Source: an uncultured delta proteobacterium
GTDB lineage: Bacteria > Desulfobacterota > Desulfomonilia > Desulfomonilales > Desulfomonilaceae
DNA: 64,000 nucleotides
Direction of reading: 5' to 3'
Assembly: GCA_963789265.1 (NCBI GenBank)
Contig: CAWBKB010000001.1
Span: forward strand, 128,001 to 192,000
Both the position numbers and the translations under genes were made by a program. Numbering within the stretch: the stretch's first letter is position 1; each line of letters starts with the position of its first letter. The notes beneath the pieces are model-generated. The model saw nothing but the letters and a program-made list of their open reading frames with translations. It was not told the DNA's origin and searched no databases. This document shows positions 14,327 to 59,700 of the stretch, one piece after another.

Positions 14327-17200
14327 TCACTTCACTTCCCCCACCAAAATAAACGGAGCCCAGTAAAACGGATGCTCATACCCTTCCGACCTGATCTCTT
14401 TCCGGGCCATTTGAAGGGCCTCTAGCCGGTTCTTGCCCTGTTTGATGTAAGACAAGAATTTCTCAGTCATCTTTGTGGTAGATACCTCAGAGACGCTCCA
14501 CAGGCTCATGAGCACGGATTTTGCGCCCGCATATTGAAAGGCCCTGCCCATTCCCATCGTTCCTTCGCCCTTGACCTCACGTCCAAGACCTGTCTGGCAA
14601 GCGGTCAGCGCGACAACATCCGCGCTCAGGTCCAAGGACATCACCTCGGACATTCTCAGGAAGCCATCCTTATCTTTTGGCTGGCCCACAAGAGTCAAGA
14701 TCAGCACCGGCTCCATGATCCCCGGCAAGCTTTCACCCACATAGCCGTGAGTTGCAAATACGACAGTCCGGTACCTATCAAGCTTTTCCTTGAACAAAAG
14801 CGGCTTGGAGGCATGCATTCCCGTAAATAAATCGGTCAGATCGGGCTGCAGCTTCTTCAGCGCCGTACCCAGATCTCCGGTAAGCGGGAGCCTGTTGAAA
14901 ACAAGTCCTGTTTCATTCTTGATGGACATCAGCTTGCCCGAAACGGACGCGAGAAGCTTCTGACGGCGTTTACGCTCCGCTTGAAGAAGACGAGGATCAT
15001 CGGATTGAAATACCGGATCGGCCATCACAAGGGTCCGGGGACCGGTTTTCTTGGTGTGTCCCAGGGTTCTGGCCAGGGTAAGTGCTGTCAGTGACTGATA
15101 ATAGGATATGGGGTTTCTATCCCCAAAATAGGCTACACCTTCAGGGTACGGCCGCGGTCCTGAAGTATTCCAGCCTGTCCCTTCCTTTATGACCAGCATC
15201 TCAAACGGGAGCACTCCGAGCATCCCGTCCGGGAGAATGATGAGGGGTTGACCCTCCGGAATGGATGCCAGAAAATCACCCACGAGCATATCAAACAGCT
15301 TCTTTCCGGTTCCCAGGGCATCCTTGAAGGCCAGGAGATTTTTTGGCGTAATTTCATCCATGTCCAGAGGCTTGCGGAAGGACCGGACGAGTTGATTAAG
15401 CTCTTTCCTGGCAATGGGTTTGAAAAGGGACTTGACCAGGGTTTTCCCTTTGAGAAGCCACATACAGATCCCCGTGTCCGTGACCTGATAGGCAAGAGTC
15501 CACTCATCGGGTTTTACCGCGGTCTGCTCCACATCCATGGGCTGGGGATACTTTGTCGCGGCAAAGAGGGGGTATTCCTTGCGAAGCATATCAATGTGAG
15601 ATTGAAGCTCGCTTTTGACTTGTTTTATTTGGGGTTCAACCGAGTCAATGACCTCGCGGTTCCCCTTTTCGTACCCGGCCTGCCTTTTCTTGATGAGAGA
15701 TGCCAGGTGGTCGTTCAGTTGCAGGTCCTCCTTCAGGACATCTCCCGGGACCTTTACGGTTGCTTCGGAGGAGCGCCTGGACATGGATTCGGCAAAGATC
15801 CTTGCTTTGGTGTATTCCGATTGCTTGAGAGCCTCGACCGGCTTGTTCAGCTTCATGAGGACCCGGGTGAGTCCTTCATAAGGTTCGGTCCTCGCAAATC
15901 CCATTACCTTCACGTCGAAGAACCTGGCCCGTTCAGCCGCGGAGAGACCAGCCCTCATCTCCTCGGATTGATCCACGGCCTTGGTGAAATATTCCGCAGC
16001 CTTGGGATAGTCTTGCATGCCTTCGTACGCGAGTGCGAGACCGACCCATGAAACGAAAAGTGCGGTGGTGTCTTTTCGTTTCTCAGCAAATTTCAGAAGC
16101 CCTTCAGAACCCTCCTTTGCTTTTTGGTAGTCTCCTTCGAGGAGATGATCTCGGACGTACAAGGGGAAGTAGAGCGGCCCGCCGATAATGGATTTGGCGT
16201 ACGACTCGGCTCTCTCAATGTCGCCTAGGTCAAAATATACGTTTGCAATTTCGAATCGTAGGCGAGGGTGAAAGAACCCTGTTCTCTTCCATGCTGCAAC
16301 GGCTTTTTGCAGCATGTCCAAGGCCGCCTTGTAGTCACCTCGCTCAGCCTGTACACGTCCAATCTCTCTCAGCCCAAACCCTTCGCCCTGTGCGTCACCA
16401 ATCTGCTTGGCCAAATCAGCGCTCTTTTGGCAGCATTCAGTTGCCCGGTCGTACTGACCAATCTCGCGGTACACCCTTCCCAGCATAAGAAACGCACTGG
16501 ATTCCTCTCTTGGGCTCCCCGTTTTGTGGGCTATTTCCAAGGACCCCCGGTACGATTCGATTGCTTCGTGGTATTGCCCTCTATCCTGGTAAAGCGCTCC
16601 CAGCATAAGAAGAGCGTCGCCTTCATCCCCCACCTTCCCACTGCTTTTGTAGATGGCCAATGCCTTTGCGCAGAACTGAGCCGCCTTGTCCTCTTCGCCG
16701 ATGTCCCGGTATACGTGCGCCAGTCGCACAAGGGCGTCTGCTTCAATCTCCGAATCCATCAACTTCAGAGCCACACCGAGAGCTTTGTCTAGGTATTCAG
16801 CGGCCTTGCGACTCTGTCCCCAATTCGCGTACGTTGATCCCATGCCCAAAAGACTCTCGGCTTCATTTCTTTTGTCACCGAGCTTCCTTCTGATTACGAT
16901 GGCCTTCTCATAATATTTCGCCGCCTTATTCCATTGACTCAAGCGCTCATGAGAGCACCCCAAGTCATGGTTTGCATCCCCGATTCCTTTGACGAATCCT
17001 ACCCTCTCGAAGATTCTCAAAGTTCGCTCCACCCTCCCCATAGCCCTGTCCAAGTCGTCTTTGGAGTGAGTTTTACTCTCTATCGCCAAACCTTCCCTAT
17101 AAAGCCTCATTCCTTCTTCTTTGGACTGCGCCCACACCGGGCAACTCAGAAAGGTGAAAACATAGCAAAGAGCGGCAAGGACTGGAATTATCTTCTTCAT
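14327..17200 (-). CDS. Secreted TPR-CHAT protease 1
   Basis: Signal peptide; six 40-aa TPR-like units; catalytic His (FATHG) and Cys (LTACQT); ends HPFYWAPFILVG. Confidence 0.95.
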   Translation of the reverse strand: MKKIIPVLAALCYVFTFLSCPVWAQSKEEGMRLYREGLAIESKTHSKDDLDRAMGRVERTLRIFERVGFVKGIGDANHDLGCSHERLSQWNKAAKYYEKAIVIRRKLGDKRNEAESLLGMGSTYANWGQSRKAAEYLDKALGVALKLMDSEIEADALVRLAHVYRDIGEEDKAAQFCAKALAIYKSSGKVGDEGDALLMLGALYQDRGQYHEAIESYRGSLEIAHKTGSPREESSAFLMLGRVYREIGQYDRATECCQKSADLAKQIGDAQGEGFGLREIGRVQAERGDYKAALDMLQKAVAAWKRTGFFHPRLRFEIANVYFDLGDIERAESYAKSIIGGPLYFPLYVRDHLLEGDYQKAKEGSEGLLKFAEKRKDTTALFVSWVGLALAYEGMQDYPKAAEYFTKAVDQSEEMRAGLSAAERARFFDVKVMGFARTEPYEGLTRVLMKLNKPVEALKQSEYTKARIFAESMSRRSSEATVKVPGDVLKEDLQLNDHLASLIKKRQAGYEKGNREVIDSVEPQIKQVKSELQSHIDMLRKEYPLFAATKYPQPMDVEQTAVKPDEWTLAYQVTDTGICMWLLKGKTLVKSLFKPIARKELNQLVRSFRKPLDMDEITPKNLLAFKDALGTGKKLFDMLVGDFLASIPEGQPLIILPDGMLGVLPFEMLVIKEGTGWNTSGPRPYPEGVAYFGDRNPISYYQSLTALTLARTLGHTKKTGPRTLVMADPVFQSDDPRLLQAERKRRQKLLASVSGKLMSIKNETGLVFNRLPLTGDLGTALKKLQPDLTDLFTGMHASKPLLFKEKLDRYRTVVFATHGYVGESLPGIMEPVLILTLVGQPKDKDGFLRMSEVMSLDLSADVVALTACQTGLGREVKGEGTMGMGRAFQYAGAKSVLMSLWSVSEVSTTKMTEKFLSYIKQGKNRLEALQMARKEIRSEGYEHPFYWAPFILVGEVK

Positions 17201-24837: not shown

Positions 24838-24838
24838 G

Positions 24839-25822
24839 TTAACGACACCTTTCATCGCTACGATAGTCGGCCGGTCCAATGGTATCGCCGTTCAGGACTT
24901 CCACGCGACGGTTCAACAAACGTCCCAATCCCGTGGCATTGGAAGCAATCGGACGATTTTGGCCGAAACTTTCAGGTACCAGGCGACCGGGGCGCACATT
25001 CCATTTTTCGGCAAGATACTGAATCACACTCTTGGCACGCCGATAACCAAGGTGGCAATTCCTTTCCGAGGTGCCAATGCTGTCGGTGTGGCCGTCGACA
25101 TAAAACTTCTCCACATCAGCCAGTTGAGTGGAATTTAGCGCCATGCCAAGCTGGTCCAACTGGTCACGCGAACTCGGCGTAAGTTTGGCCGAACCGGTTT
25201 CAAAAAGTATGCTGTGAAAAACGACTCTGGACTCATTCTCTTCGTCACGATCGTATCTGCCGTGTCGCGAAGATTCACCGTGCTCATGACGCGGACGACG
25301 CCCAGCCCGGAGAGATTCGACAATGACATCTTTACTTATCAGATCCTTGCGCCCCTTTGACTCAGTAGAGGACGGAGTTTCCCTGACAAGATTTTGGTAC
25401 TCCTTCAGCGCCTTTTTGTCGTGGCAGAAGCTCAGTCCGGTCTCGTAATAAGCCCGCGCGAGGGCGGGTCGATTCCGCTTGGTCAGATCTCGCGCGGCCT
25501 TCAGAACCTTCGGGCAGGTTGATGCGGTACCAAACTCCACCGCTTTCTGATATTGAGCCAGGGCTTCGGAGAACTTTCGTTGAGAATACAACGCATCTGC
25601 CTTCTTAAGAGCGGATACCGGGTCCCCTTTTTCAGGACAGAGCCTGGAGGCCTTGTACAACAATTCCGCTTTGATTTCGGATGGCATTGCGTTAGAGCCG
25701 CGAACGTCTTTGCGTATGGACGCAGCTCTGTCGCAATCGGAAGCATAGGCTTCCACGCCTCCCGAGGCCGTCAGGACAACCATGACGACCAGAAATGCCG
25801 ATGCAAAGGCATGTAATCTCAT
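24839..25822 (-). CDS. Secreted TPR + OmpA-C domain protein B
   Basis: Signal peptide; ILFETGSA, VDGHTD, RA, NRRVE. Confidence 0.92.
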   Translation of the reverse strand: MRLHAFASAFLVVMVVLTASGGVEAYASDCDRAASIRKDVRGSNAMPSEIKAELLYKASRLCPEKGDPVSALKKADALYSQRKFSEALAQYQKAVEFGTASTCPKVLKAARDLTKRNRPALARAYYETGLSFCHDKKALKEYQNLVRETPSSTESKGRKDLISKDVIVESLRAGRRPRHEHGESSRHGRYDRDEENESRVVFHSILFETGSAKLTPSSRDQLDQLGMALNSTQLADVEKFYVDGHTDSIGTSERNCHLGYRRAKSVIQYLAEKWNVRPGRLVPESFGQNRPIASNATGLGRLLNRRVEVLNGDTIGPADYRSDERCR

Positions 25823-26925: not shown

Positions 26926-28368
26926 TCAGAATTTGATATCACGGGCCAAGCCGTACTCGTCTGTGATTTGGGGTGTCTGATGCTCAACCAATGAAGAAGT
27001 CTCTTCCATCACGTTCTGGCGAGTCTTCTCAAAGGCGACCTGAAGATTCGGCGCACGATCTTTTATATTGGTTACAAGCCAGTAAGTGAACAATCCTGCG
27101 TGCTTAGCTTTATCCTCGTACGAGGATTCAGGTTTGGCGCACGCGGCCAGAAGCGACTCCTTCTCCGTCAATGTGTCGCCGTATGCAGCACGGGTTGTAC
27201 CACTGGCCACGAACTGGAGTTCCTTTTGTTTCTCACGATGAATCCTGTGGATTTCTGCCGGGCTGAGCAGCGGAAGATACTTTAAGACGAACCTTGAGGA
27301 AAGCTCTTTAGTAATGGAGCCGCTGTGGCAGGAATCTACGGAGATCAATTTTCGCCTTGCCGGGATCTTTTTCAATAAGTCGGCGAAATCGGTGCCGACA
27401 AAGAGTATGTTCTTCAGGTCAGGATCGCTCAGGCGAAGTCGCTTCTTACGGCTAAAGCAAACAAATGCCGCGGACAGACCATCAGGGTGCTTTACAGGCG
27501 GCACATCCGGAATCAGGGTCCCGTGTCCACTGAAATAGATGAGCACGAGATCTTCCGGTTGGGTCCTGGACGCAAGCCCCTTCAATGCCTCGACAAATCC
27601 TGCTCGCGTAGCCTGAGGGCCGATAAGGACTCGTGTGTTTCCCGCTGGAATGCTGAGCTTGTCGGCCATCAGCCGGGCAAATCCCTTGGCATCCTCGTCG
27701 CAGTAACGCAGCCCTAGAGTTGCGGCTCCCACGCTTACTAGGAACACATTCCGGCTGGTGATACTTCCGCCCTCAGGCACGTTCCCGATCACCAGTCTGG
27801 TTTCGGCTGTGCCCCATTTCACATTCTGTGAGAGGCCGTCCGTCCTACTTGCGGCTTCAACTACCAGATCCTTCAGATTCTTCTGATAAGACTTGAAGCC
27901 TCCACGGTACTCACCGAACTCGTCATCTCTCAAAATCGCGTTTTTCTTTGTGGTAGCGACGGCCACGATTCTCTCGATCCCCACCGGTCCGGAAACCCTG
28001 AACACAAATTTGTCTGAGGCGCCTGGGAAAGAGTGTCGCTTGTGCGCTTTGACAAAATTGTCGCTTCCCGAAAACTCATTTGGCCAAAGCCGCGTAATTT
28101 TCCCCGATGTCCCAACATCGATCAGGGTCAGGTAGCAATCCTTATCCGGTTCAAAGTGAACAGTAACCGTGTCGCCCGGTTTGATCTTCGTCTTATCGAC
28201 AGAGAGATTTACGTTAATTCTTGTCTTGCTTTTCCCGTTAGTCGGCACCACTTGTATGTCTTTGTTAAATGAAAACTCCTTGTCCTTGGCGCCGGCCTGT
28301 GCGAACGACATTAAAACGCACATCACCGCGGCCAAAACGGCCAAGAACATTTTGTCGATGCGAGCCAT
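26926..28368 (-). CDS. Secreted DUF4384-like + caspase-family protease
   Basis: Signal peptide; DCYLTLIDVGTSG..LWPN; YFSGHG and VDSCHSG. Confidence 0.88.
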   Translation of the reverse strand: MARIDKMFLAVLAAVMCVLMSFAQAGAKDKEFSFNKDIQVVPTNGKSKTRINVNLSVDKTKIKPGDTVTVHFEPDKDCYLTLIDVGTSGKITRLWPNEFSGSDNFVKAHKRHSFPGASDKFVFRVSGPVGIERIVAVATTKKNAILRDDEFGEYRGGFKSYQKNLKDLVVEAASRTDGLSQNVKWGTAETRLVIGNVPEGGSITSRNVFLVSVGAATLGLRYCDEDAKGFARLMADKLSIPAGNTRVLIGPQATRAGFVEALKGLASRTQPEDLVLIYFSGHGTLIPDVPPVKHPDGLSAAFVCFSRKKRLRLSDPDLKNILFVGTDFADLLKKIPARRKLISVDSCHSGSITKELSSRFVLKYLPLLSPAEIHRIHREKQKELQFVASGTTRAAYGDTLTEKESLLAACAKPESSYEDKAKHAGLFTYWLVTNIKDRAPNLQVAFEKTRQNVMEETSSLVEHQTPQITDEYGLARDIKF

Positions 28369-28383: not shown

Positions 28384-28596
28384 CTATCGGCCTTTGTGCC
28401 AAAACCAATTTGACTCCGCTACTTCCAGTTGGGCTGGTTCAATAGCGTGACACAATTCCTCGGAAGACCTCGCCATTGCCGACAGTCTGCCGGAAATGGA
28501 GCTTGGTCTTGTTCTTCTTATTGCTGGTCTGTGAAACGCTCATCGGAATACTCACAACTCCCTTCGTTTTGCCTCTCATTTCCTCGTTATTGCCAT
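28384..28596 (-). pseudogene. Internally deleted relic of a caspase/DUF4384-type gene
   Basis: GAGGAGG RBS and ATG at 28596; ends AIEPAQLEVAESNWFWHKGR*, matching AIESAKLDVAHSVWFWHKGR* of the gene at 36892. Confidence 0.75.
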
Positions 28597-28617
28597 GCTT
28601 ACCTCCTCGTCGAAAAC

Positions 28618-28648
28618 ATTAGTGGCAACTCGTTCTCTTTGGTGACAG
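28618..28648 (-). promoter_or_regulatory. Putative ECF promoter CTGTCA-N19-ACTAAT
   Basis: Shared motif at the head of the 28.6-18.7 kb operon. Confidence 0.72.
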
Positions 28649-36260: not shown

Positions 36261-36557
36261 TCACTTCACTTCCCTCACCAATATGAACTGGAGCCCAGTA
36301 AAACGGATGATCGTAGCCCGCCTTTCTTACTTCATCCCGGCCCAACTTTAATGCCTCCAGTTTGTTCTTCCCTTCCTTGAGATGCTTGAAGAAGCTTTCC
36401 ACAAGATTGACGGAAGCTGTTTCGGGAACGCTCCAAAGGCTCATCAATACACTTTTCGCGCCTGCGTACTGGAAGGCTCGGTCCATTCCCATAGTGCCTT
36501 AACCGGAGATGCGACGAAAACCAACAACAATGCTACCAAAACAGCTTGCTTGCTCAT
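36261..36557 (-). pseudogene. TPR-CHAT relic: signal peptide joined directly to the CHAT C-terminus
   Basis: MSKQAVLVALLLVFVASP, then GTMGMDRAFQYAGAKS...HPFYWAP. Confidence 0.85.
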
Positions 36558-40294: not shown

Positions 40295-40301
40295 ATCGCG
40301 T

Positions 40302-41327: not shown

Positions 41328-41363
41328 GATACCGCACATGAGGCACAAATCTCCTCTGTTAGA

Positions 41364-42473: not shown

Positions 42474-42529
42474 TTGGAACTTCCCTTCTCTTGAAGCCAA
42501 CGTACAGTATAGTCCCACTTACTATAGAC

Positions 42530-42658: not shown

Positions 42659-45286
42659 TCAGTTCATTTCGCCCACCAGAATGAACGGTGCCCAATAAAA
42701 CGGATGGTCGTACCCGGCCTTCCGTATCTCGTCTCGGGCAAGTCTCAAAGCCTCCAGTTTGTTCTTCCCTTCCTTGAGATGCTTGAAGAAGCTTTCCACA
42801 AGATTGACCGAAGCTGTTTCGGAAACGCTCCAAAGGCTCATCAATACACTTTTCGCGCCTGCGTACTGAAACGCTCGGCCCATTCCCATCGTGCCTTCGC
42901 CGGAGATGCGTCTTCCCAGACCGGTTTGGCACGCGGTAAGCGCGGCTATATCGCAGTTGATCTTCAAACCCATGACTTCACTCAATCTCAGGAAACCATC
43001 CTGACCTTTCGGTTCACCGACAAGGCTAAGAACCAGCACCGGCTCTTGTATTCCGGGCAGATCTTTCCCGGTATACCCATGTGTGCCGAACACTAGAGAG
43101 CGGTACGGAGTGAGGTCTTTCCCGAGGAGGACGGACTTCTTGGAGGTCATGCCTTCATACAGGTCGGTCTTAGAAGAGTCGGTTTTCTTCAGGGACTCGC
43201 CAAGTTCAGCCGTAAGCGGAAGCCTGGGAAAAGTTAGGCCGCTCTCAGTTTCGATAGACATGGTGAGGTCTTTCGGGAGCGTAGCCAAAAGCCTGTCCTC
43301 CTCCTGTTTGGCAAGTTTCACCAGGCGTGGATCGTCGGAAGAGAAAACAGGGTCCACCATTGCAAGCAGTTTTTCGCCGAGTTTATGTTGTTTTCCAAGG
43401 GTACGTGCGAGAGTCAGGGCCGTGATCGACTGGTAATAAGAAATGGGATTGCGATCTCCGAAGAATTCGTCACCGGAGGTTTGAGGTCTATTGCCGTTCG
43501 TTACCATCTTTCCCCCCTCATTGAGGACGAGCATCTCGAACGGTACCACGCCGAGGGAACCGTCGGGGACGATGATTACAGGAGTATTCTTGGGCAGGTC
43601 AGAGAGTATGTCGCTGAGGAGAAGGTCAGAGAGTTCCTTTCCGGATTTAAAATCAAAGGACTCGAGCTTCTTTGGGAGAGAATCGTCAGGCCCAAGTTCC
43701 ATGGGCTGACGGAATTGCATGACCAGTTCATCCACTTCTTTTCTTGGAGTCGGCTTAAACAGCCCCTTTACGAGATTCTTGCCTTTCGTGAGGTAAATTA
43801 TGATGCCTGGATCGGTAACATGATAAGCCAGCACCCATTCGTTATCTTTCAGGGCGGATTGATCCAAACCCATCGGTTGAGGATATTGGGTCGCGGCAAA
43901 GAGCGGATACTGTTTGCGGAGCATGTCAATGTGCGCGGCAAGGTTTTCTTTTGCCGTTTTCACCTGGGGCTCAAGCGCGGCTATGACCTCTTTGTTCTGC
44001 TTCTCGTATGCTTTCTGGAGATTCTTGCTTAGTCCTGCGAGCTGCTCATTGAGATGAGAATCTTTTTCCAGCACGTCCTGTGGAATGTGCGGAGCTGACC
44101 CTTCTGCCCGCTTTGAGATGCGTTCGGCAAACATACGGGCTCTCGTGTATTCGGATTCCTTTAAGGCTTCCAGAGGCTTGTTGAGTTTCACCAGTACTCG
44201 GGCAAGTCCCTCGTACGGAGCAGTCCTGTAAAAGCCGCCGACCCTGACATTGTAGAACTCCGCTTTCTCGGCAGGGTTCAGGCCGGCTCTTAAATCTTCG
44301 GTACGATCAATGGCTTTGCGAAAACAGTCCGCGGCCGCGGGGTTATCTCCCATCTTCTCGTATGTCATTCCCAGGCCGGTATAGGAAATGAAGAGATCAA
44401 TTGAATTCTGGTTCTTCTCAGCACTTTGACGAAGTTTTTCGTAACACGCTCTTGCCTTCCCATACTCTGATTTGAGCAGGCTGAGCCTTCCCAGGGAAGC
44501 ACTGTAATTGCCTTCCCTTACGAAGGGCTCAGCTTTCTGAACGTCTCCCATGTCTAGGTAGAGATTACCGATACAATCCTTGGGCCAATTCGCCGGAACT
44601 CCGATCTTGAGGTAGATTGCCAGCGCCTTTTGAAAATTTGTCAGTGCTTTGTCGGACAGGCCCGAGTGCTGACATACCAGCGCCAGGTTGCCCAGGATTT
44701 GCCCTTCGGTCTTCACATCCCCGATCTTCCTCGTGATCTCTAGCGACTTATTGTAGAATTCCACTGCCTTGGCATACTGACCCCAGTTCAAATATATGAT
44801 CCCCAGGTTGCTCAGGGTGGCCCCTTCACCTTTGACGTCTCCGATCTTTCTCTTAATAGCAAGAGACTTTTCGAAGAATTCCACTGCCTTGGCATACTGA
44901 CCCCAATCGTAATATACGGTCCCCAGGTTGCCCAGGGTTTGCCCTTCGCCTTGTACGTCCCCGATCTTTCTCGTGATAGCCAGAGCCTTCTCGTCGAATT
45001 CCACTGCCTTGGAATACTGACCCCATTGCTGGTAGATGATCCCCACATTGCCGTAGGCCAATCCGAGATTCTTTCGCTCCCCGACCCTTTGATAAATTGC
45101 AATGGCCTGGAGGAATTTCTGTTCTGCCTGTTTCAGGTCTGCGTTGGATCGGCCTTTCTGTTGCAAGGCATACGCTTCCTTGTGGAGGCGTATCGCGTCC
45201 TGCCTGGATTGAGCCAACAATGGCGATGAAACAAGAATACAAAGTGCGGCTATTATTGCCGGGACAATCACGATTCGTTTGAACAT
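42659..45286 (-). CDS. Secreted TPR-CHAT protease 3
   Basis: Close paralog of protease 2 with four repeat units; FGTHG and LTACQT. Confidence 0.95.
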   Translation of the reverse strand: MFKRIVIVPAIIAALCILVSSPLLAQSRQDAIRLHKEAYALQQKGRSNADLKQAEQKFLQAIAIYQRVGERKNLGLAYGNVGIIYQQWGQYSKAVEFDEKALAITRKIGDVQGEGQTLGNLGTVYYDWGQYAKAVEFFEKSLAIKRKIGDVKGEGATLSNLGIIYLNWGQYAKAVEFYNKSLEITRKIGDVKTEGQILGNLALVCQHSGLSDKALTNFQKALAIYLKIGVPANWPKDCIGNLYLDMGDVQKAEPFVREGNYSASLGRLSLLKSEYGKARACYEKLRQSAEKNQNSIDLFISYTGLGMTYEKMGDNPAAADCFRKAIDRTEDLRAGLNPAEKAEFYNVRVGGFYRTAPYEGLARVLVKLNKPLEALKESEYTRARMFAERISKRAEGSAPHIPQDVLEKDSHLNEQLAGLSKNLQKAYEKQNKEVIAALEPQVKTAKENLAAHIDMLRKQYPLFAATQYPQPMGLDQSALKDNEWVLAYHVTDPGIIIYLTKGKNLVKGLFKPTPRKEVDELVMQFRQPMELGPDDSLPKKLESFDFKSGKELSDLLLSDILSDLPKNTPVIIVPDGSLGVVPFEMLVLNEGGKMVTNGNRPQTSGDEFFGDRNPISYYQSITALTLARTLGKQHKLGEKLLAMVDPVFSSDDPRLVKLAKQEEDRLLATLPKDLTMSIETESGLTFPRLPLTAELGESLKKTDSSKTDLYEGMTSKKSVLLGKDLTPYRSLVFGTHGYTGKDLPGIQEPVLVLSLVGEPKGQDGFLRLSEVMGLKINCDIAALTACQTGLGRRISGEGTMGMGRAFQYAGAKSVLMSLWSVSETASVNLVESFFKHLKEGKNKLEALRLARDEIRKAGYDHPFYWAPFILVGEMN

Positions 45287-45375
45287 GGCAGCCTCATGAA
45301 ACATCCTTGAGTGGTTTCCCTCATGAACCAGCGTGAACCTTACCTTCGGATCATATGAGTCGGTGTCCAAAATTA

Positions 45376-48620: not shown

Positions 48621-51458
48621 TCAGTTCACCTCACCCACCAGAATGAACGGAGCCCAATAAAACGGGTGCTTGTATCCAGCATTGCGGACATCTTCCCTCG
48701 CGGATTTCAGTGCATCCAGTTTATTTTTTCCTTCCTTCAAATGCGCAAAGAATTTTTCAACCAATAAAACAGATCCGCTCTCGGAGACTGACCATAGACT
48801 CATCAGGATTGATTTTGCACCCGCGTATTGGAACGCCCTACCCATGCTCATGACGCCCTCTCCGGAGAGATTATTTCCCAGACCGGTTTCACACGCTGTC
48901 AAAGCTACAATATTGGCGTTGAGCTTCATGCCCATAACCTCGGTCATTCTCACAAACCCATCCTGGTCTTTGGGCTGACCCACCAATGTCATGGCCAACA
49001 CAGGCTCTTGAATTCCAGGAATATCAGTGCCGAAGTACCCGTGAGTGGCGAAAACAATTGAACCATAATCCGTCAGCGGCTTGTCGAACAGTATGGACTT
49101 CTTTGCCTGCATGCCGGTGAAAAGATCTGTTTTGTTCGGATTCAGTCTTTCGAGTGATTCCGCCAACTCAGTGGTCTTTGCGAGTCTGGGGAAGGTGATA
49201 CCTGTTTGATCTTTGATGGACATGAGCTTTTCAGGCAATGCAGCCAATAATTTCTGTTGTTTCTTCGCAGAAGCGATCTTCAAACGAGCATCATCAGGCT
49301 CAAATACCGGATCGGCAATAACCAGGGTTTTGGAGCCGGGCTTCTCATTTGACCGGAGCGTCCTCGCCAAAGTCATGGCGGTGATGGACTGGTAATAGCT
49401 GATGGGATATACATCACCAAGATACGTGAGACCTTCAGGATAGGGTCTTCCACCTTCTTCTTTCCAGGTCGGCTTACCGGAGAGTACAAGGGCTTCAAAT
49501 GGGAGAATGGCTAATATACCGTCTGGAATGATAACAAGAGGAGTGCCTTCGGGAACCTGCATCAGCACGGCCCCGAGAAGCTTTTTGTACAGATTCCGGC
49601 CCAACTCGGGATCGAATTCCTTGAGCTTCATTTCCTCGAACGAGTGCCGAAACTTTTTTACATCTTTCTCCAAGCCCCCGGATTTCCACTCAGTGTAGAA
49701 GGTCTGGGCAATCTTCTTCCCCTTGATGACTTTGACTCCTACTCCCTCGCTGGAAACATCAAAGATGACAACGTATTCTTCGGGTTTGAGGGCTGATTCC
49801 TTCAGGGTTACCGGTCTTGGGTATTTTACTGAGGCGTACGGCTTGTACTTTTCCCAGAGCATTTGTATAAAAGTGTTCAGTTCGGCTTCAGCATCCCGAA
49901 CCTGTTTGCCGATATTTCCGTACGTGGCGGGAGATTTTTCCTTGTCGGTCTTGGCCAACTGTTTCTTGAGCGCTGCAACCTTACTGACAAGCTCGTTTTC
50001 TTTTTGGAGCACCTGATTGGGTACGCCAGACGCGCCTGCTTTCGTTGTCAAAGCAATGTTGTCCGAGAATGCCCTTGCCCTGGTTGCCTCGCTGGAATCT
50101 ATGCTTCCCGCGGCCTGATTGAGTTTCATTCTTACGCGGGTCAATCCCTTGGCCGGCTCCGATCGTTGGAACCCGTTGATTTTCACCTCAAAGAAATTCT
50201 TTCTCTCTGCCGGTAAGAGGCTGGACCTGATCTCTTCGGTGAGTTTCATTCCTTTCTCGTAATATCCTTCCGCCTTCTTGTAATCCTCCAACCCTTCATA
50301 GACTCTGCCCAGTCCGGTATATGCTGTGAAGAGTTCATCAGCATCCTTGTTCTTTTCAGCCCAGGCCAAACAGCTTTCGTAGTCTTTCTTGGCTGCTGCA
50401 TAGTCAGATTTCAGAAGGTAGAGTCTGCCGAGGGATCGGGAGTAATTTGCGGCCCTTACGTAGGGTGCCGCCTTGTCCAGCTTCCCCATGTCCAGATATA
50501 GATTGCCTATATACTCCTTGGACAATCTGGTTGGAATTCCGATTTTAGCATGAATTGCGATTGCCTTTTGGAAACTTGCAAGCGCTTCATCGTATTTACT
50601 CATGTGGACGTAGTTTGTTCCGATATTGTTTAGGTAGCGCCCTTCCTCCCTCACGGCACCAACTCTTCTCGCGATATCCACCCCCTTCTCAAAGTATTCC
50701 AGTGCTTTTTGATACTGTCCAGTCTTCTCATAAACAAGGCCGATGCCGGCCAGCGACCACTCCTCTCCTTGCACGTTTCCTACCCTTTTTGCGATAGCTA
50801 CGGCTTTTTCATAGTGCTCCAAGGCCTTTTGATATTGCGCCAGATAGCCATAAACATTGCCCATGTTGCCCAGCGCAACTGCCGCTTCTTTGGGGTCACC
50901 GATTTTCTGCTCGATTCCCAAAGCCTTCTCATAGTATTCCAGTGCTTTTTGATACTGACCCGTGTTCTCATAAGCAAAGCCTATGCCGCCCAGGGACGCC
51001 CCCTCTCCTTGCACGTATCCCACCTTCTTTGCGATTGCTAACGCTTTTTCATCGTACTCCAAAGCCTTCTTATATTGCCCCAGATAGCTGTAAACATTCC
51101 CCATGCGGGACAGAGTGACACTCTGGCCTGCAGCGTTGCCGGTCTTCCCATGGACTTCGAGAGCCTTTTCGTAGGCTTCCAGCGCCTTTTGGTACCGACT
51201 TGTGTACTCATAAATAACGCCAATGTCGTTCAGGGTGGCTCCCTCCCATCCAGATCTAACTCTTTTGAAGATTTCCAACGCCTGCTGGTATTTCGCAAGG
51301 GCCTTTTCCAGGTCCTCTTTGGAACGCGCATTGGCTCTTAATTGCTCAGCTTCCTTGTAGAAGGCGATTCCTTGATTCTCCGATTGAGCCGACCCGAGCG
51401 AGGGAAGGAGAGCAAACATCACCCACAAGACAGCTATGAAAGCGCAAATTCTAATCAT
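48621..51458 (-). CDS. Secreted TPR-CHAT protease 4
   Basis: Signal peptide; six units; FATHG and LTACET. Confidence 0.95.
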   Translation of the reverse strand: MIRICAFIAVLWVMFALLPSLGSAQSENQGIAFYKEAEQLRANARSKEDLEKALAKYQQALEIFKRVRSGWEGATLNDIGVIYEYTSRYQKALEAYEKALEVHGKTGNAAGQSVTLSRMGNVYSYLGQYKKALEYDEKALAIAKKVGYVQGEGASLGGIGFAYENTGQYQKALEYYEKALGIEQKIGDPKEAAVALGNMGNVYGYLAQYQKALEHYEKAVAIAKRVGNVQGEEWSLAGIGLVYEKTGQYQKALEYFEKGVDIARRVGAVREEGRYLNNIGTNYVHMSKYDEALASFQKAIAIHAKIGIPTRLSKEYIGNLYLDMGKLDKAAPYVRAANYSRSLGRLYLLKSDYAAAKKDYESCLAWAEKNKDADELFTAYTGLGRVYEGLEDYKKAEGYYEKGMKLTEEIRSSLLPAERKNFFEVKINGFQRSEPAKGLTRVRMKLNQAAGSIDSSEATRARAFSDNIALTTKAGASGVPNQVLQKENELVSKVAALKKQLAKTDKEKSPATYGNIGKQVRDAEAELNTFIQMLWEKYKPYASVKYPRPVTLKESALKPEEYVVIFDVSSEGVGVKVIKGKKIAQTFYTEWKSGGLEKDVKKFRHSFEEMKLKEFDPELGRNLYKKLLGAVLMQVPEGTPLVIIPDGILAILPFEALVLSGKPTWKEEGGRPYPEGLTYLGDVYPISYYQSITAMTLARTLRSNEKPGSKTLVIADPVFEPDDARLKIASAKKQQKLLAALPEKLMSIKDQTGITFPRLAKTTELAESLERLNPNKTDLFTGMQAKKSILFDKPLTDYGSIVFATHGYFGTDIPGIQEPVLAMTLVGQPKDQDGFVRMTEVMGMKLNANIVALTACETGLGNNLSGEGVMSMGRAFQYAGAKSILMSLWSVSESGSVLLVEKFFAHLKEGKNKLDALKSAREDVRNAGYKHPFYWAPFILVGEVN

Positions 51459-51547
51459 AGAAGCCCCTCCCGTGCAGAACCAAGTGGTGGAAATAGCCAA
51501 GGTCCTGCGATTACAATTCAAAGCCTGAACGGCTAGGCCAACGATGC

Positions 51548-52884: not shown

Positions 52885-55723
52885 TCACTGCACCTCCCCC
52901 ACCAGAATAAACGGTGCCCAATAAAACGGGTGCTTGTATCCAGCATTGCGGACATCTTCCCTCGCGGACTTGAGTGCATCCAGTTTATTTTTTCCTTCCT
53001 TCAAATGCGCAAAGAATTTTTCAACCAATAAGACGGAACCGCTCTCGGAGACTGACCATAGACTCATCAGGATTGATTTTGCACCCGCGTATTGGAACGC
53101 CCTACCCATGCTCATGACACCTTCACCGGAGAGATTATTTCCCAGACCGGTCTCACAGGCTGTCAAGGCTACGATATTGGCATTGAGCTTCATGCCCATA
53201 ACTTCGGTCATCCTGACAAACCCATCTTGATCTTTGGGCTGACCCACCAGGGTCATGGCCAACACAGGCTCTTGGATTCCAGGAATATCAGTGCCGAAGT
53301 ACCCGTGAGTCGCGAAAACAATGGAACCGTAATCGGTGAGAGGCTTATCGAATAGTATGGATTTCTTTGCTTGCATGCCGGTGAAGAGATCTGTTTTGCT
53401 CGGATTCAGTCTTTTGAGAGATTCCGCCAACTCAGTGGTCTTTGCGAGCCGAGGAAAGGTGATACCGGTTTGATCCTTGATGGACATGAGCTTCTCGGGG
53501 AGCGCCGCCAGCAGCTTCTGCTGTTTCTTTGCGGATGCGATCTTCAAACGGGCATCATCGGGCTCAAATACCGGATCGGCAATAACCAGGGTCTTGGAGC
53601 CGGGCTTCTCATTTGACCTCAGTGTCCTCGCCAAAGTCATGGCGGTGATGGACTGGTAATAGCTGATGGGATATGCGTCACCAAGATAAGTAAGTCCTTC
53701 AGGGTAGGGTCTTCCACCTTCCTCTTTCCAGGTCGGCTTACCGGAGACTACAAGGGCTTCAAACGGGAGGATGGCTAATATACCGTCTGGAATGATAACA
53801 AGAGGAGTGCCTTCGGGAACCTGCATCAGCACGGCCCCGAGAAGCTTTTTGTACAGATTCCGGCCCAACTCGGGATCGAATTCCTTGAGCTTCATTTCCT
53901 CGAACGAGTGCCGAAACTTTTTTACATCTTTCTCCAAGCCCCCGGATTTCCACTCGGTGTAAAAGGTTCTGGGCAATCTTCTTCCCTTTTATCAGTTTTA
54001 CGCCGACGCCTTCGCTGGAGACATCAAAGATGACAACGTATTCTTCGGGTTTGAGGGCTGATTCCTTCAGGGTTACCGGTCTTGGGTATTTTACTGAGGC
54101 GTACGGCTTGTACTTTTCCCAGAGCATTTGTACAAAGGTGTTCAGTTCGGCTTCAGCACCTTGAACCTGCTGATTGATATTTCCGTACGTGGCGGGAGAT
54201 TTTTCCTTGTCGGTCTTGGCCAACTGTTTCTTGAGCGCTGCAACCTTACTGACAATCTCATTTTCTTTTTGGAGCACCTGATGAGGAACACCGGAAGTGC
54301 CCTCTTTCGTTGTTAAAGCAATGTTGTCCGAGAATGCCCTTGCTCTGGTTGCCTCGCTGGAATCTATACTTCCTGCCGCCTGATTGAGTTTCATCCTCAC
54401 GTGGGTCAGTCCTTTGGCAGGTTCGGACCGTTGGAACCCGTTGATTTTGACCTCAAAGAAATTCTTTCTCTCTGCCGGTAAGAGGCTGGATCTGATCTCT
54501 TCGGTGAGTTTCATTCCTTTCTCATAATATCCTTCTGCTTTCTTGTAATCTTCTAATCCTTCATAGACTCTTCCCAGCCCGGTATATGCTGTGAAGAGTT
54601 CATCAGCATCCTTGTTCTTTTCAGCCCAGGCCAAACAGCTTTCGTAGTTTTTCTTGGCTGCTGCATAGTCGGATTTCAGAAGGTAGAGTCTGCCAAGGGA
54701 TCGGGAGTAATTTGCGGCTCTTACGTAAGGTTCCGCCTTGTCCAGCTTCCCCATGTCCAGATACAGATTGCCTATAAGCTCCTCGGACCCTCTGGTTGGA
54801 ACTCCGATTTTGGCCTGGATTGCGATTGCTTTTTGGAAACTTGCAAGCGTGTCTTCATATTTTTCCATCCGGACGTACGTTTTCCCGATGTCGTTTAAGG
54901 CAAATCCCTGACTTCTGACGTTGCCCTCCTTTCTATCGATATCCAGAGCTTTTTGATGGTATACCAGCGCCTTTTGATATTGACCCAAGTCGTCGTAAAT
55001 CGAGCCCATGCCGCTAAAGGTCCACCCTTCGGCCCGTACGTTCCCACTCTTCTCTTCAAGGACCAACGCCCTCTCATAGTATTCCAGCGCCTTTTGATAT
55101 TGACCCAAATCCGCGAAAATCTGCCCCACGTAAAACACGTCCTCCGCTTCCTCCTTAACATTGCGGAGCTTCCTCTCAACTTCTATTGCCTTTTCGTAGT
55201 ATTCCAAGGCCTTTTGATATTGCCCCGACTGCCTCTGAACTACGCCGATGCCACCCAGCGTCCATCCCTCTGCCTGCAGGTTCCGGCTCCTCTTTGACAT
55301 GACCAGCGCCTTCTCGTAGTATTCCATCGCCTCGCTATATTGACCCAACTCGACATAAGACACGCCAATGTTGTTCAGGGTAGTCGCCTCGCCCCTAGGG
55401 TTCCCAAACCTTCTATGGATATCCAGCGCCTTCTTGAAGTATTCCAGCGCAGTCTTATATTGACTCAGCTTAGAATAAATCAAGCCAATGTCGTTCAGAG
55501 CGGCTCCCTGCCACGATGACCCCACTTTCTCGAAGATTTCCAAAGCCCGCCGATATTTGGCCAGCGCCGTTTCAAGGTCCTCCCGGGAACGTGGTACGTC
55601 CCGCAATGCCCGGGCCTGGTTGTAGATGGCAATTCCTTGCTTCTCCGATTGAGCCGACCCGAGCGAGGGAAGGAGCGCAAACATCACCCATAAGACAGCG
55701 ATCAAGCCGCATATTCTTTTCAT
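52885..55723 (-). CDS. Secreted TPR-CHAT protease 5 (1-bp insertion near 53967)
   Basis: C-terminal two thirds near-identical to protease 4; six divergent TPR units. Confidence 0.92.
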
Positions 55724-55800
55724 GGACAATCCCCATATTGGAAATATTCAGAATCCTGTATTCAGCATCCAAGGTCCCCCAAAGAGGGAGCATCTATTGC

Positions 55801-55969: not shown

Positions 55970-56485
55970 CTAGGTGGGTACAGCGTTGCTGCGCTTCCGC
56001 AGCCACGAGCGAGCAAACATTATCCCGGAAAATACAGGTGCAACTGCCCCGAATAAGCTTGCCAGGAACGAGATAACTTTCAGTCCGGTCCCCATTAATG
56101 CGTCTTCGGATGGTTTGGGCTTAACTTTCTCCAACAGATTACGGTAGGTATCCAACCGTTGTCGGAGAATCGTCTCATTGTGCTTCAGTTTTTCAAGTTC
56201 CCCATTCAGCCTTTCAATTTCCTTTTTTCTCTGCCCGGCTAATCTCGAAAATCCCTTTTCTTTTGCGGTATTGGTCTTGGCGGTATCAAGGGTCGTCTGA
56301 ACGCTGTCAATATCCTGCCGGGTATGAGCCACGACTTTGGCTAGTCTCTCCGCACGGAGAGTCATGCTTATGCGATTAACTGACGGAATGGTGAAAAAAA
56401 CCAGGCATAGAAGACCTATGCTCAGAATAATAACGAATGTAAGCGACAAAATTGGGCGTCTGGATTTTCCTGAATTCGAACTCAT
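55970..56485 (-). CDS. Small membrane protein: TM, coiled coil, C-terminal hydrophobic segment
   Basis: GGGGAGGAG RBS; N-terminal TM; heptad-like middle; ALMGTGLKVISFLASLFGAVAPVFSGIMFARSWLRKR. Confidence 0.7.
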   Translation of the reverse strand: MSSNSGKSRRPILSLTFVIILSIGLLCLVFFTIPSVNRISMTLRAERLAKVVAHTRQDIDSVQTTLDTAKTNTAKEKGFSRLAGQRKKEIERLNGELEKLKHNETILRQRLDTYRNLLEKVKPKPSEDALMGTGLKVISFLASLFGAVAPVFSGIMFARSWLRKRSNAVPT

Positions 56486-56616
56486 GTCTCCTCCCCATTT
56501 CCACGGATCCAATACTCTGTTGACCCGACTGTATCCAATTTCAATCCGGCGGACCTGAACAGCCGCAAACAAGCTACTGCGTATCCTCCAACTAATATGA
56601 ACAAAGCCCATTCTTG

Positions 56617-56688
56617 ACCACGGAGACACAGAGTTCACAAACAAATCCAATATTTTTCTTTCTCAGTGTCCTCTGTGTCTCCGTGGTG
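56617..56688. repeat. ACCAC(G)GAG-type inverted repeat downstream of a CHAT gene
   Basis: ACCACGGAGACACAGAG...CTCTGTGTCTCCGTGGT. Confidence 0.8.
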
Positions 56689-56704: not shown

Positions 56705-59700
56705 TCAGTTCACTTCGCCCACCAGGATAAAAGACGCCCAGTAAAACGGGTGCTTGTATCCAGCATTCCTTACATCCGCCCTTGCCGACTTCAGGGCATC
56801 CAGCTTGTTCTTCCCTTCCTTGAGGTGTTCAAAGAATTTTTCCGTCAACATCACGGACGCGTTTTCCGCCACGGACCAGAGACTCATCAGCACGGACTTG
56901 GCCCCCGCGAACTGGAACGCCTTGCCCATGCTCATTACGCCTTCACCGGCCAAATTATGCCCCAGGCCAGTTTCGCAGGCGGTGAGGGCCACCATGCCGG
57001 CGTTGAGTTTCATACCCATCACTTCGGACATCGTGAGAAAACAGTCCTTTTCCTTGGGTTGACCTACTAACGACATAACTATGACCGGTTCACGGATTTC
57101 AGGTATGTCGTTCCCGAAATAACCGTGGGTGGCAAAGACGATGGAACCATAATCCGTAAGCGGTTTATCGAACAGGATGGATTTCTTCGCCTGTAGGCCG
57201 GTGAAAAGAGTAGTTTTATCGGGATTCAATTTCTTGAGGTATTCCGCGAGCTCGGTGGTCTTTTCAAGTCTGGGAAAGATTAAGCCCGTCTGGTCTTTGA
57301 TTGACATGAGCTTTTCAGGCAATGCAGCCAATAATTTCTGTTGTTTCTTAGCCGCAACCGTCTTAACGCGAGGATCATCCGGGCCGAATACTGGATCGGC
57401 GAGAACCAACATCCTGCCTCCCGGCTTGCTTTGCGACCTCTCTTTGCGGACCATAGTCAAGGATGTGATGGATTCGTAATAGCTTATGGGATATACGTCG
57501 CCAAGATAAGTAAGACCATCGGGGTACGGCATGGTGTTACCTTCTTTCCATGTCGCTTTTCCCGACACGACAAGGGCTTCAAATGGAAGCGTCGCCAGAA
57601 TGCCGTCCGGGATGATTATCAGGGGAGTCCCCTCCGGAACATCAGCCAGGACCGCGGTCAACAGCCTCCTGTACAGCTTCTTGCCCAAATCGACATCAAA
57701 TTTGACTTTCGGATTGTCAGGCTCCTCGAACGGTTCACGAAACTTCTTTATGTCTCGTTCCAGGTCCTTCATTTTCCATCTTTCGGAGAGGGTCCGGTCC
57801 GGAACTTTGTCTCTGATCAGTTGTATTGCGATCTCTTGCTCGGACACTTGAAAGGTGATCACGCACTCTTCGGGCTTGAGCAGAGATTGCTGGGGCGATA
57901 CCGTTCGGGATACTTCACCCACGCGTATTTCTCGTACTTGCTACGGAGCATTTCAACGAATTTTTCCTTTTCCGCCTCCGCATCCCGGACCAATTTGCTG
58001 AGGTTGTCAAATCGCGCCGGATTCTTTTCTTTGTCGGTCTTTTGCAATTGTTTTTTCAGAGCGGCGACCCCGGTCACGACTTCATCTTCTTTTTTGAGGA
58101 CCTCATCAGGCACGCCCGCGAATCGCGATCTCTGGGATATGGCGTCCGCGAATGCTCTTGCCCGGGTGGCTTCTATCGAATCTATGGCTTGCAAGCCTTT
58201 GCCCAGCTTGCACTTCACTCGCGTCAAACCTTTGGCGGGCTCGGAACGCTGAAAGCCGCAGACCTTGACATCGAAGAAATCCTTTCTTTCAGATGGCAGG
58301 AGGCTCGATCTCATCTCTTCGGTGAGGTTCATCCCCTTTTCATAGTACTTTTCGGCTTTCTCATAGTTTCCCAATCCCTCGTAAACTTCTCCCAGGCCGG
58401 TGTAGGCTGTGAAAAGACTGTCGACATTTCCACTCTTCTGTGCCGAAGCAAGAAGCTTCTCGTAGTTCGTTTTGGCTTTACCATATTCGAGTTTCAGCAA
58501 ATGCAGTTTCCCAGAAGCCCAAATTAAATGCTTGCCTTTCAGGACCTTTGCTGCTTCGGCCAATTCCCCTTTTTCCATGTAAGTCCAGGCAATCAAAGCC
58601 TTAACGTGAAGCGGGGATGCACCAATTTTGGTCTTGATTTCAAGCGCCTTTTGGTAGCTCGTGAGCGCATCGTCATATTTCCCGTAGTCGAAGCACACTC
58701 GACCGATATTTGCAAAATTACTTGATTCACTGTTCTGATCGCCCATGGCCTTGGCCAACCTGCAAGCTTTCTCATAATTTTCCAGGGCTTTTTGGCGCTG
58801 ACCCCAGGTGTGGTAAATACTTCCCATCAAACCACAACTCCAGGCCTCCCCTTGGCTGTCGCCGATCTCCCTTTGCGTTGCCAGCGCTTTGTTACAGTAT
58901 TTTAATGCCTTTTGATACTGCCCCCCAAAAAAATAGATTGTCCCAGCGTTGTTTAAAGTTGTCGCCTCCGCTTTTCGTTCGCCAATTTTCCCGTCGATCT
59001 CAAGAGCCTTTTCGTAATTCTCCAAGGCCTTCTGATACTGCCCCCAAGCTGCGTAAACGATGGCCATGTCATTTAGCTGAATCCCTTCTTCTCTAACGCC
59101 ACCAACTCTTCGCTGAATGTCCAAGGCCCTTTTGTGGCACTCCAGGGCTTTCTTATATTGTCCCAACTGACAGTAGGCCGCACCAAGACCGCCCATAGCG
59201 CTGCCCTCACCCGCGACATTGCCTATCTTCTTATCAATCGCCAGGCCTTTTTCATAATTTTCCAAGGCCTTTTGATAATCACCCATAAACTTATAGGTCC
59301 AGCCTATGCCAACTAATACATTTCCCTGGTCTCCTATGCTCTTGAGCCGCTTGCTAATTGCAAGGGATTTTTCATAACAATCCAGAGCCTTATGGTATTG
59401 TCCCATACCTCTGTAGGTAAATGCCATTTGGCTGAGAGCCCATCCTTCCCCTCGCAGATTGGAGACCTTCCGTTGCAAGTTCAGGGCTTTCTCCTGGTAT
59501 TCCAATGCCTTTTGAAGCCGGCCCAAATACCTATAAGCGGAGCCTATGTTAGCCAGCGTCGTGGCTTGCCCTTTGAGGTTTCCGACTTTCTTGTGTAGAG
59601 CAAGGGCCTGTACATAATACTCTAGTGCCTGCCCATACCGGCTCATGCCAGAATAAACGGAGCCTACGTTAGCCAGCGTCGTGGCTTGCCCTTTGAGATT

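Follow-up and report, generated by a model that had tools for sequence, protein, structure and literature searches.

Bacteria carry CHAT proteases in large numbers (the subfamily studied here has 2315 representatives at E<=1e-30), and their substrates and specificity are known solely for the CRISPR-linked ones. In this study, we analyzed a 64,000-nucleotide stretch of the genome of an uncultured delta proteobacterium (C1:128001-192000 of a 6.06-Mb, 9-contig assembly; hereafter the window, to which coordinates refer unless another contig or locus is named). The window contains an island of secreted proteases that combine tetratricopeptide repeats (TPR) with a CHAT domain, of a kind seen in Desulfomonilaceae assemblies, and our subject is a motif of methionine followed by a small residue, which occurs in a loop of these proteases and in the linkers of some of their neighbors. 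An earlier note, made from the DNA alone, had proposed that the proteases shifted to Met specificity together with their own loop and their substrates.

Among the closest described systems, Craspase is characterized by a single cut in a loop of the substrate after Met or Leu, and its substrate is tied to a sigma factor resembling the extracytoplasmic function (ECF) type. For DiCsx29 of Desulfonema, the preprint gives the cut in Csx30 as M427|K428, with reduced cutting of the M427A variant (bioRxiv 10.1101/2022.08.17.504292), and a second report places it between residues 427 and 429 and has it blocked by deletion of M427 (PMC10028731), in agreement with the cut at about Met427 stated in the earlier note. 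SbCsx29 of Scalindua cuts at L407|D408, and the report on it states that L407M is accepted while Ile, Val, polar and charged residues are not (PMC9825189). DUF4384 makes up one group of Csx30 C-terminal domains. SAVED-CHAT, from a type III-B CRISPR/CBASS (cyclic oligonucleotide-based antiphage signaling system) hybrid of Haliangium, cuts and activates a caspase (bioRxiv 10.1101/2023.06.23.546230). DdvA, a Myxococcus anti-sigma factor, is a periplasmic TPR-CHAT protein linked to an ECF sigma factor, and its CHAT domain was proposed by the authors to cut a flexible linker of its own protein (PMC11506125). Proteases of clan CD in general are described as having strict P1 specificity, and several plug or process themselves; the C80 family (MARTX/CPD) has Leu specificity and is inhibited through its N-terminal region, and in MALT1 the S1 pocket takes up a Gln from a loop (PMC4357240).

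Our analysis revealed that the island proteins are CHAT family members by profile, catalytic dyad and fold. They share the TPR plus CHAT architecture with Craspase, and Csx29 is the best structural match of the CHAT model described below. DUF4384 is frequent in the island, and the operon of the motif-bearing proteins also encodes an ECF sigma factor and, next to it, a probable anti-sigma factor, a tie of gene co-location only. Craspase, however, is cytoplasmic and switched on by Cas7-11 binding RNA, whereas most products of the island open with a hydrophobic leader-like segment, as read from the translations, and for that reason the system looks extracytoplasmic. In addition, sequence similarity to Craspase is limited to the His-Cys core, and the candidate substrates in the island are other proteins. 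Pfam found no Cas domain in the 27 open reading frames (ORFs) scanned, and no dedicated Cas or CRISPR search was made. With SAVED-CHAT and its PCaspase, the island has in common that genes for a C14 caspase and a sigma factor accompany that of the CHAT protease, together with a fold match over the caspase-like core (8tl0_C); that system differs in being cytoplasmic with a SAVED sensor that binds cyclic triadenylate (cA3), whereas the N-terminal parts of the island proteins are TPR arrays, and no ORF of the island had a Pfam hit for the SAVED domain. DdvA resembles the island in its periplasmic TPR-CHAT, its ECF link and its fold (8rw5, Z 19.4), but it carries the anti-sigma domain and TPR-CHAT in one polypeptide, whereas the probable anti-sigma factor of the island (38635-39672) is a separate protein with neither a CHAT nor a TPR hit. 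Furthermore, DdvA is without the three-helix motif at the active site, and the island CHAT has a three-helix insert in its L1 loop. We did not file the island proteins under Craspase, SAVED-CHAT or DdvA; they would be like them in working if the reading given next is right. Human separase has pseudo-substrate loops, and relative to the self-inhibition found in clan CD (C80, MALT1, legumain, separase) the element proposed here differs in lying in L1 and in carrying Met.

We observed that the Met-small motifs are conserved, that they sit in disordered or mobile segments, that they co-vary between proteins of one operon and that the CHAT L1 loop carries them as well. By analogy with Csx29, we propose at somewhat under an even chance that this module serves the CHAT protease of the operon as a processing or pseudo-substrate site, with Met in the P1 position; that the CHAT active site is the reader, that Met is P1 and that the bond is cut are the three elements we infer. 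In such a scheme, Met would occupy the CHAT S1 pocket and the cut would fall between Met and the small residue, as it does for Csx29 on Csx30. Cutting would free an OmpA-like domain from its TPR part in one protein and detach the tail from a caspase in another. The copy in the protease itself, mobile and beside the dyad (L-M-small, or the whole module in a clade with long loops), would keep the enzyme latent as a plug, or be a site of self-processing.

All six TPR-CHAT genes of the window carry KLMSIK or LTMSIE in the loop, as the earlier note had stated, with the Met codons on the minus strand: 14927-14929 (KLMSIK; gene 14327-17200), 33278-33280 (LTMSIE; 32678-36027), 43259-43261 (LTMSIE; 42659-45370), 49221-49223 (KLMSIK; 48621-51521), 53485-53487 (KLMSIK; 52885-55729) and 57305-57307 (KLMSIK; 56705-60153). 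These genes are recent paralogs, and therefore the shared hexapeptides are weak evidence alone. The genome holds 11 members of this CHAT subfamily, all with Met and a small residue in the loop (10 M-S, 1 M-A), and two CHAT genes of other types with no Met-small at the loop position. The CHAT domain of 48621-51521 was searched against 1.84 billion representatives, with 2315 matches at E<=1e-30 and 92,615 at E<=0.001. Loop columns were counted in the best 150 of the 2315 representatives (43-74% identity), where the aligned positions hold L in 102 and M in 112, followed by S in 39, A in 38 and G in 15; when cases shifted by the aligner are included, the Met motif is present in 123 of 150. The flanks are variable, with no majority residue in the 20 positions before or the 6 after L-M. 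The loop L-M-[SAG] is a conserved island across the family, beyond a paralog artefact. It lies between two near-invariant elements, a D-x-R right after beta1 (D in 142 and R in 143 of 150; residues 145 and 147, window:48624-49724, minus strand) and an R-L-x-x-T at the start of alpha1 (R in 140, L in 146 and T in 142; residues 180-184). A second comparison used 86 CHAT ORFs from named genomes, split at 300 bits. Of the 17 with at least 300 bits, 13 retain the Met; among the 69 domains at greater distance, the corresponding column has Arg in 21, is gapped in 19 and has Met in 1, the Arg cases being mostly L-R-S, L-R-G or F-R-N; the loop alignment to these distant domains is uncertain and loop length varies. 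The Arg-Gly/Ser loop that the earlier note named for other bacteria thus finds partial support in that Arg is the commonest residue there, with the gaps and the uncertain alignment set against it. A sub-clade of CHAT representatives (P0095, P0106, P0112, P0114, P0130 and P0143) has a second motif, W-[KR]-x-M-G-[VI]-[AK]-G-[VLI]-[RK], about ten residues past the L-M-[SA] site.

The CHAT gene 42659-45370 is the first gene of the operon that carries all three conserved neighbor motifs; together with the three motif-bearing neighbors and the sigma and anti-sigma genes it forms a single string of minus-strand genes. The five neighbor Met codons named in the earlier note are real: 41754 in ENLMCMC, 40695 in ERQMGLQKK, 37036 in DEIMGISK, 56093 in DALMGTG and 28541 in PMSV. 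In raw counts over 17 neighbor proteins (6583 aa), M[SGC] is at chance (15 vs 14.7 in shuffles), and [LIVMFQ]M[SGC] occurs 8 times vs 4.5 in shuffles, 7% of which reach 8, and 7.8 from the genome-wide rate. The LM[SGA] pattern (7 occurrences, where shuffles give 2.2 and the genome rate predicts 3.9) was chosen post hoc and was not used as evidence. Retention of the Met in orthologous linkers had been set as a check beforehand, and the Met was kept in the caspase tail, in the OmpA protein 40302 and in LMCMCP, and was not kept in DALMGTG.

The caspase (Peptidase_C14)-DUF4384 protein (36892-38538, minus strand, 548 aa) has a conserved C-terminal tail of 48 aa, which opens with Met501-Gly (Met codon 37036-37038). 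We aligned 38 orthologs (45-69% identity) with the query, and in the resulting 39 rows the column holds M in 36; in the remaining three rows M-G is shifted left by one column. Met is followed by A in 18 rows and by G in 13. Conservation of Met501 is 0.92, and residues 470-500 score 0.0-0.3 except L497 at about 0.8. Three caspase orthologs have insertions of about 50 residues upstream of the tail Met. In the TPR-like/OmpA protein (40302-41348, minus strand, 348 aa; Pfam OmpA 2.3e-17), the linker that leads into the OmpA-like domain holds the Met-Gly (Met codon 40695-40697). Of 70 genomes of the order that were searched, 38 gave a match; when 29 loci were aligned with the query, 30 of 30 rows had M-[GAS], about 20-25 residues ahead of the OmpA-like domain. 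In alignment A6 the linker Met (M193) is the sole invariant column outside that domain. By hidden Markov model (HMM) column, M is present in 56 of 59 ORFs of the OmpA family, one of the three exceptions being the window gene 24839-25822 (minus strand), which has His-Gly instead of Met-Gly. Two of the four OmpA paralogs of the window, 22027 and 24839, have no Met at the linker place. The AlphaFold2 model of OmpA 40302 has a mean predicted local distance difference test score (pLDDT) of 91.1, and the score drops below 50 in one segment only, the M-G-L triplet, within a coil that joins the helical part to the OmpA domain.

The third conserved motif, LMCMCP, is located about 20 aa before the OmpA-like domain of the TPR-OmpA protein 41364-42518 (minus strand, 384 aa; Pfam OmpA 1.2e-20; Met codon 41754-41756). 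It is kept in 9 of 9 sequences, namely the query and all 8 close orthologs (P0152-P0157, L026 and L030), and is absent from two distant orthologs; MCMCP has 11 occurrences, exclusively in this second TPR-OmpA family. The motif holds two cysteines (window 41739-41756, minus strand; also L026, L030, L134, L172, L176, L190 and L192) and might be a metal or disulfide site, instead of or besides a class I Met-small-Pro motif as defined below. DALMGTG, in the small protein 55970-56650, has no Met in the paralog C1:209185 nor in the sole ortholog (L027), and since the Met is not conserved we place it outside the motif system. An internal translation start at the conserved Met was also considered and rejected, as Shine-Dalgarno-like cores 5-12 nt upstream are about as frequent as elsewhere (caspase 3/16 and OmpA 12/50, vs 18/102 and 55/261 at other internal Mets).

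The caspase tail and the OmpA linker share a module of about ten residues, which in the window reads MGISKAIVRK in the caspase and MGLQKKWIRK in the OmpA protein. Two classes were distinguished, class I being M-[GASC]-P-x(3-7)-[IV]-[RK]-K, to which the window pair is assigned here despite having no Pro, and class II M-G-[FI]-x-[DE]-[FYH]-T-[VI]. At all 17 loci with both proteins, the class is identical in the caspase and the OmpA protein. Co-variation was scored with BLOSUM62 over positions +1 to +9 in 15 distinct caspase-OmpA pairs, and the module score was 15.1 within a locus vs 2.3 across loci, with 0 of 20,000 shuffles as high as the observed value. Cross-locus pairs of the same class score 10.7, and against these the observed value was reached by 1.3% of shuffles. 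When caspase tail and OmpA linker were compared with hhalign, Met paired with Met and SFExLS with LFDEWS, in a weak match (E 0.053, probability 1%); the two segments may be homologous.

The whole module also appears within the protease in a CHAT clade whose L1 loops are 115-140 mostly low-complexity residues long, with the full class I module as the sole conserved island. At L031, the L1 loop reads ERTMAPIAGRVRRKV, and the tail of the adjacent caspase, at the end of its linker, reads EKTMAPTKAIRRKV. Among the long-loop representatives, P0050, P0062 and P0108 fit the strict pattern, which was defined on the OmpA and caspase motifs, and P0078 and P0111 fit it loosely. This pattern has 5 hits in 3.31 million residues of the six-frame ORFs of the genome, and 3 hits in the 13,666 residues of beta1-to-His segments from 144 representatives vs 0.021 expected. 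It follows from these hits in L1 that, in the long-loop clade at least, the active-site loop of the protease displays the linker motif of its operon partners. CHAT variants without the Met (LLRS, LLS, RLT etc.) have no TPR-OmpA or caspase-tail neighbor at their loci (L127/L128, L141, L148, L156/L157 and L159, among 40 from a cluster look-up plus a metagenome scan with P0028), which are uninformative for co-variation. The check on loop and linker co-variation named in the earlier note gave none for the short loops. The joint Met shift of protease loop and substrates gains in part from the family-wide loop Met, the three conserved neighbor motifs and the long-loop module; the proposed change from Arg to Met rests on the uncertain loop alignment, and the short loops do not co-vary.

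To place the CHAT Met in the fold, we used an AlphaFold2 model of the 367-residue CHAT domain of 48621-51521 (mf931fe4d2a84; 74 sequences, mean pLDDT 90.9). The order of elements is strand E132-139 (LVIADPVF), helices 146-149, 153-161 and 165-174, then helix 183-194. The Met is residue 168, in the third short helix, and the 10-residue block around it has a pLDDT of 66, the second-lowest of the model. The dyad residues H228 and C278 follow strands E220-226 and E272-276 and are invariant or nearly so in alignments A2, A3 and A4. The best structural matches are Csx29 (7y9x_B, Z 21.7, root-mean-square deviation (rmsd) 3.2, 280 aligned; 8d9f_A, Z 21.5), separase (5fc2_B, Z 21.3) and DdvA (Z 19.4, as above); 8tl0_C matches at Z 16.0 (176 aligned), and with VIA-align the fold is like Csx29 and separase at rmsd 3.1-3.2 over 271-280 residues. 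Caspases and MALT1 align to the model from residue 124-130 onward, and on this basis E132-139 is beta1 of clan CD and the Met insert (49179-49307, minus strand; three predicted short helices, the third with L-M-S) is the L1 loop between beta1 and alpha1. S1 residues of clan CD come from L1 or the start of alpha1 (caspase-7 Arg87, MALT1 Asp365, legumain Arg44/His45; PMC4357240). The substrate pocket of craspase and separase contains a motif of three alpha helices that is missing from DdvA (PMC11506125). We infer that the three-helix L1 insert is the counterpart of that motif. A CHAT-only profile matches DdvA (6.4e-6) and Csx29 (2e-4) over the His-Cys core only, so that the equivalence with the craspase motif is putative. 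A single-sequence search of solved structures gave nothing relevant, and the full-length profile was swamped by TPR hits. Complex prediction of the CHAT domain (A4) with caspase residues 375-548 (A5) gave an interface score (interaction prediction score from aligned errors, ipSAE) of 0.00 in two runs without controls, a result that counts neither for nor against the reading.

Several observations weigh against a Met-P1 site read by the CHAT protease. The loop lacks the Met motif in 27 of the 150 representatives, and in 24 of these 27 the dyad is intact; the motif is kept in 118 of 142 dyad-bearing and in 5 of 8 dyad-less representatives, and from the latter it follows that the motif does not track catalysis. 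Arg180, kept in 140 of 150, falls at the L1/alpha1 junction, where caspase-7 holds its P1-Asp-binding Arg87, so that by topology the S1 pocket could be of the acidic and not the hydrophobic type. The CHAT Met is predicted to lie in a helix, which would be a poor shape for a scissile bond and not a plain linker. The short CHAT loops, the six of the window included, share with the neighbor motifs just the Met and a small residue, and they co-vary neither with OmpA linkers (-4.6 within vs -3.4 across, 21 loci) nor with caspase tails (-5.4 within vs -4.9 across, 10 loci). Among the 17 neighbors in the island, 14 have no conserved motif, and the co-variation counts between caspase and OmpA proteins overstate the number of independent events because the genomes used are closely related. 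The basic residues conserved 8-10 positions past the Met would suit the co-encoded C14 protease as the reader. Moreover, in the work of Strecker et al., no single Ala substitution in Csx30 abolished cutting (PMC10028731).

Four other explanations were weighed. The module could be a docking motif, bound uncut by the TPR array or by DUF4384 and assembling the island proteins into one complex, with the L1 copy as an intramolecular competitor. An invariant island in a disordered linker is the hallmark of a short linear motif, the module co-varies between two proteins of one operon, and TPR arrays, which commonly bind short peptides, are present in all the CHAT proteins and in the OmpA proteins; Csx30 likewise docks on Csx29 through its C-terminal domain whether the protease is active or not (PMC10028731). 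The own copy of the protease, however, sits in L1 by the active site and away from the TPR part, and the strict invariance of Met plus a small residue suits a P1-P1' pair better than a groove ligand, so docking appears unlikely to us. It is also doubtful that the Mets have separate structural roles, with the CHAT L-M as the hydrophobic anchor of an amphipathic groove helix like the three-helix motif in craspase and separase, the tail of the caspase and the linker of the OmpA protein homologous (linker plus first strand and helix of the OmpA-like domain) with a Met kept by descent, and the likeness within operons due to gene conversion. The spacing L, M, x, x, [IV] does fit one face of a helix and the model predicts one, the motif persists in dyad-less representatives (5/8), hhalign pairs Met with Met and SFExLS with LFDEWS, and the three-helix motif sits in the substrate pocket of craspase and separase and is missing in DdvA (PMC11506125). 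Against this, the hhalign match is weak (E 0.053, probability 1%), packing hardly explains why the only disordered segment in the OmpA model should hold an invariant residue, a module within long low-complexity CHAT L1 loops cannot derive from the OmpA fold, and the craspase three-helix motif is not placeable in the sequence, the profile matches to Csx29 and DdvA being limited to the His-Cys core.

The reader could instead be the co-encoded C14 caspase, cutting after the conserved Lys or Arg 8-10 residues past the Met, in which case the caspase tail would be an autoinhibitory pseudo-substrate and a cut in the CHAT L1 loop would switch CHAT, reversing the direction of the cascade. In class I, [IV]-[RK]-K is retained, as is in class II a Lys some nine residues past the Met; the module is located at the C-terminal tail of the caspase itself, and the caspase family has invariant H166, C217 and D215. 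A D-x-C-H motif accompanies basic P1. Orthocaspases cleave after basic residues (PMC6426788). We nevertheless consider this quite unlikely, as the invariant column is the Met and not the basic residues (M193 being the sole invariant position outside the OmpA domain in A6), most CHAT loops have L-M-small without conserved downstream basic residues, and motif-bearing OmpA-CHAT pairs are found at loci where, within limited flanks, no caspase tail was found (L025, L030, L134 and L137 among them). Finally, Met-small dipeptides are common and could have been picked after the fact, as the raw count (15 vs 14.7 expected), the unconserved DALMGTG and the two of four OmpA paralogs without the Met would have it; conservation of 0.92 to 1.0 amid flanks at 0.0-0.3 apart from one Leu, the co-variation of two neighbor families and 3 CHAT-loop pattern hits vs 0.021 expected make chance highly improbable.

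The island data name candidates for the substrates, for the scissile bond and for a latency element inside the protease. If a Met-P1 site is what the module represents, the Met/Leu P1 rule of Csx29 would extend to secreted CHAT proteases, and an envelope-located protease cascade would be tied to sigma-factor signaling. A wider version, which we hold to be improbable as a whole, is that the substrates of a large family of periplasmic TPR-CHAT proteases are defined by a portable cleavage tag that begins with Met. The TPR array would sense a signal and the protease would remove its own L1 plug; the tag would then be cut in TPR-OmpA, releasing the peptidoglycan-binding domain, and in caspase-DUF4384, releasing an inhibitory tail. 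A periplasmic CHAT-to-caspase cascade would start, wired to the ECF sigma/anti-sigma pair, a parallel on the envelope side to the Craspase and SAVED-CHAT cascades linked to CRISPR. We found no description of this island type or motif in the literature searched, with most subscription journals outside its coverage.

The six TPR-CHAT genes lie on the minus strand between 14.3 and 60.2 kb, three intact (14327-17200, 957 aa; 42659-45370, 903 aa, Pfam CHAT 3.4e-46 plus TPRs; 48621-51521, 966 aa) and three broken. Pfam found CHAT (PF12770) at all six loci; the intact genes score 173, 158 and 172 bits against a cut-off of 24, and the whole genome has 17 PF12770 matches, 15 of them above it. Frame changes split the other three, 32678-36027 into three ORFs (35167-36027, 33372-35144 and 32678-33379) and both 52885-55729, a near copy of 48621-51521, and 56705-60153 into two overlapping ORFs. 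An additional CHAT C-terminal relic with a TAA stop is present at about 36277-36513. The nearest relatives of the CHAT domain in named genomes are in Desulfomonilaceae and Desulfomonile assemblies. The operon gene set recurs, in varying order, in L025, L026, L032 and L033, and the pairing of CHAT with a C14 caspase in L026, L031, L032 and L033.

Downstream of the motif-bearing OmpA genes, the operon encodes an ECF-type sigma factor (39674-40387, minus strand; Pfam Sigma70_r2 and r4_2) and a 345-aa protein (38635-39672, minus strand), judged from its N-terminal H-x3-C-x2-C and one hydrophobic span to be a probable membrane anti-sigma factor; it has no Pfam hit and no Met beyond the hydrophobic span. 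Orthologs of the sigma factor adjoin CHAT genes in L019 and L026, and there the anti-sigma orthologs come after the sigma gene. Four OmpA-domain proteins with TPR-like N-terminal parts are present (22027, 24839, 40302 and 41364), with PF00691 at 51 to 74 bits against a cut-off of 27.2. Pfam detected TPR arrays in every CHAT protein as well as in the OmpA proteins. Of the four Peptidase_C14 proteins, 23042, 26926 and 36892 have DUF4384 and 47762 does not; the domain of 36892 scores 62.3 bits, and its H166 and C217 are invariant in 38 sequences. Also among the CHAT genes, Pfam identified double-DUF4384, BNR/sortilin-DUF4384, ankyrin and Sel1 proteins and an M15 dipeptidase.

PMSV, which the earlier note had placed in a relic, belongs to a decayed, frameshifted caspase tail (28384-28618, minus strand), in which one frame reads ...EELCHAIEPAQLEVAESNWFWHKGR and the neighboring frame PMSVSQTSNKKNK, from stop-to-stop frames compared by eye with the tail of 36892-38538. 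This remnant is upstream of the DUF4384-caspase gene 26926-28368 and ends in ...NWFWHKGR like 36892-38538. The small membrane/coiled-coil protein 55970-56650 (minus strand; DALMGTG Met at 56093) is encoded after a CHAT gene and is built of an N-terminal membrane span, a coiled coil and a hydrophobic C-terminal segment. Small proteins of this layout come after a CHAT gene at two more places, C1:209185-209790 (plus strand) of the genome and L027:11177-11767, which makes three in all. In another assembly, L126:1558-5751 (minus strand; G055:C7) is one open frame of 1397 aa in which Pfam finds both TPR-CHAT and TPR-OmpA. We considered and rejected a CHAT-plus-OmpA fusion, given an in-frame leader-like segment between the two parts; because of this internal segment, the frame is probably two genes whose stop was lost or is read through.

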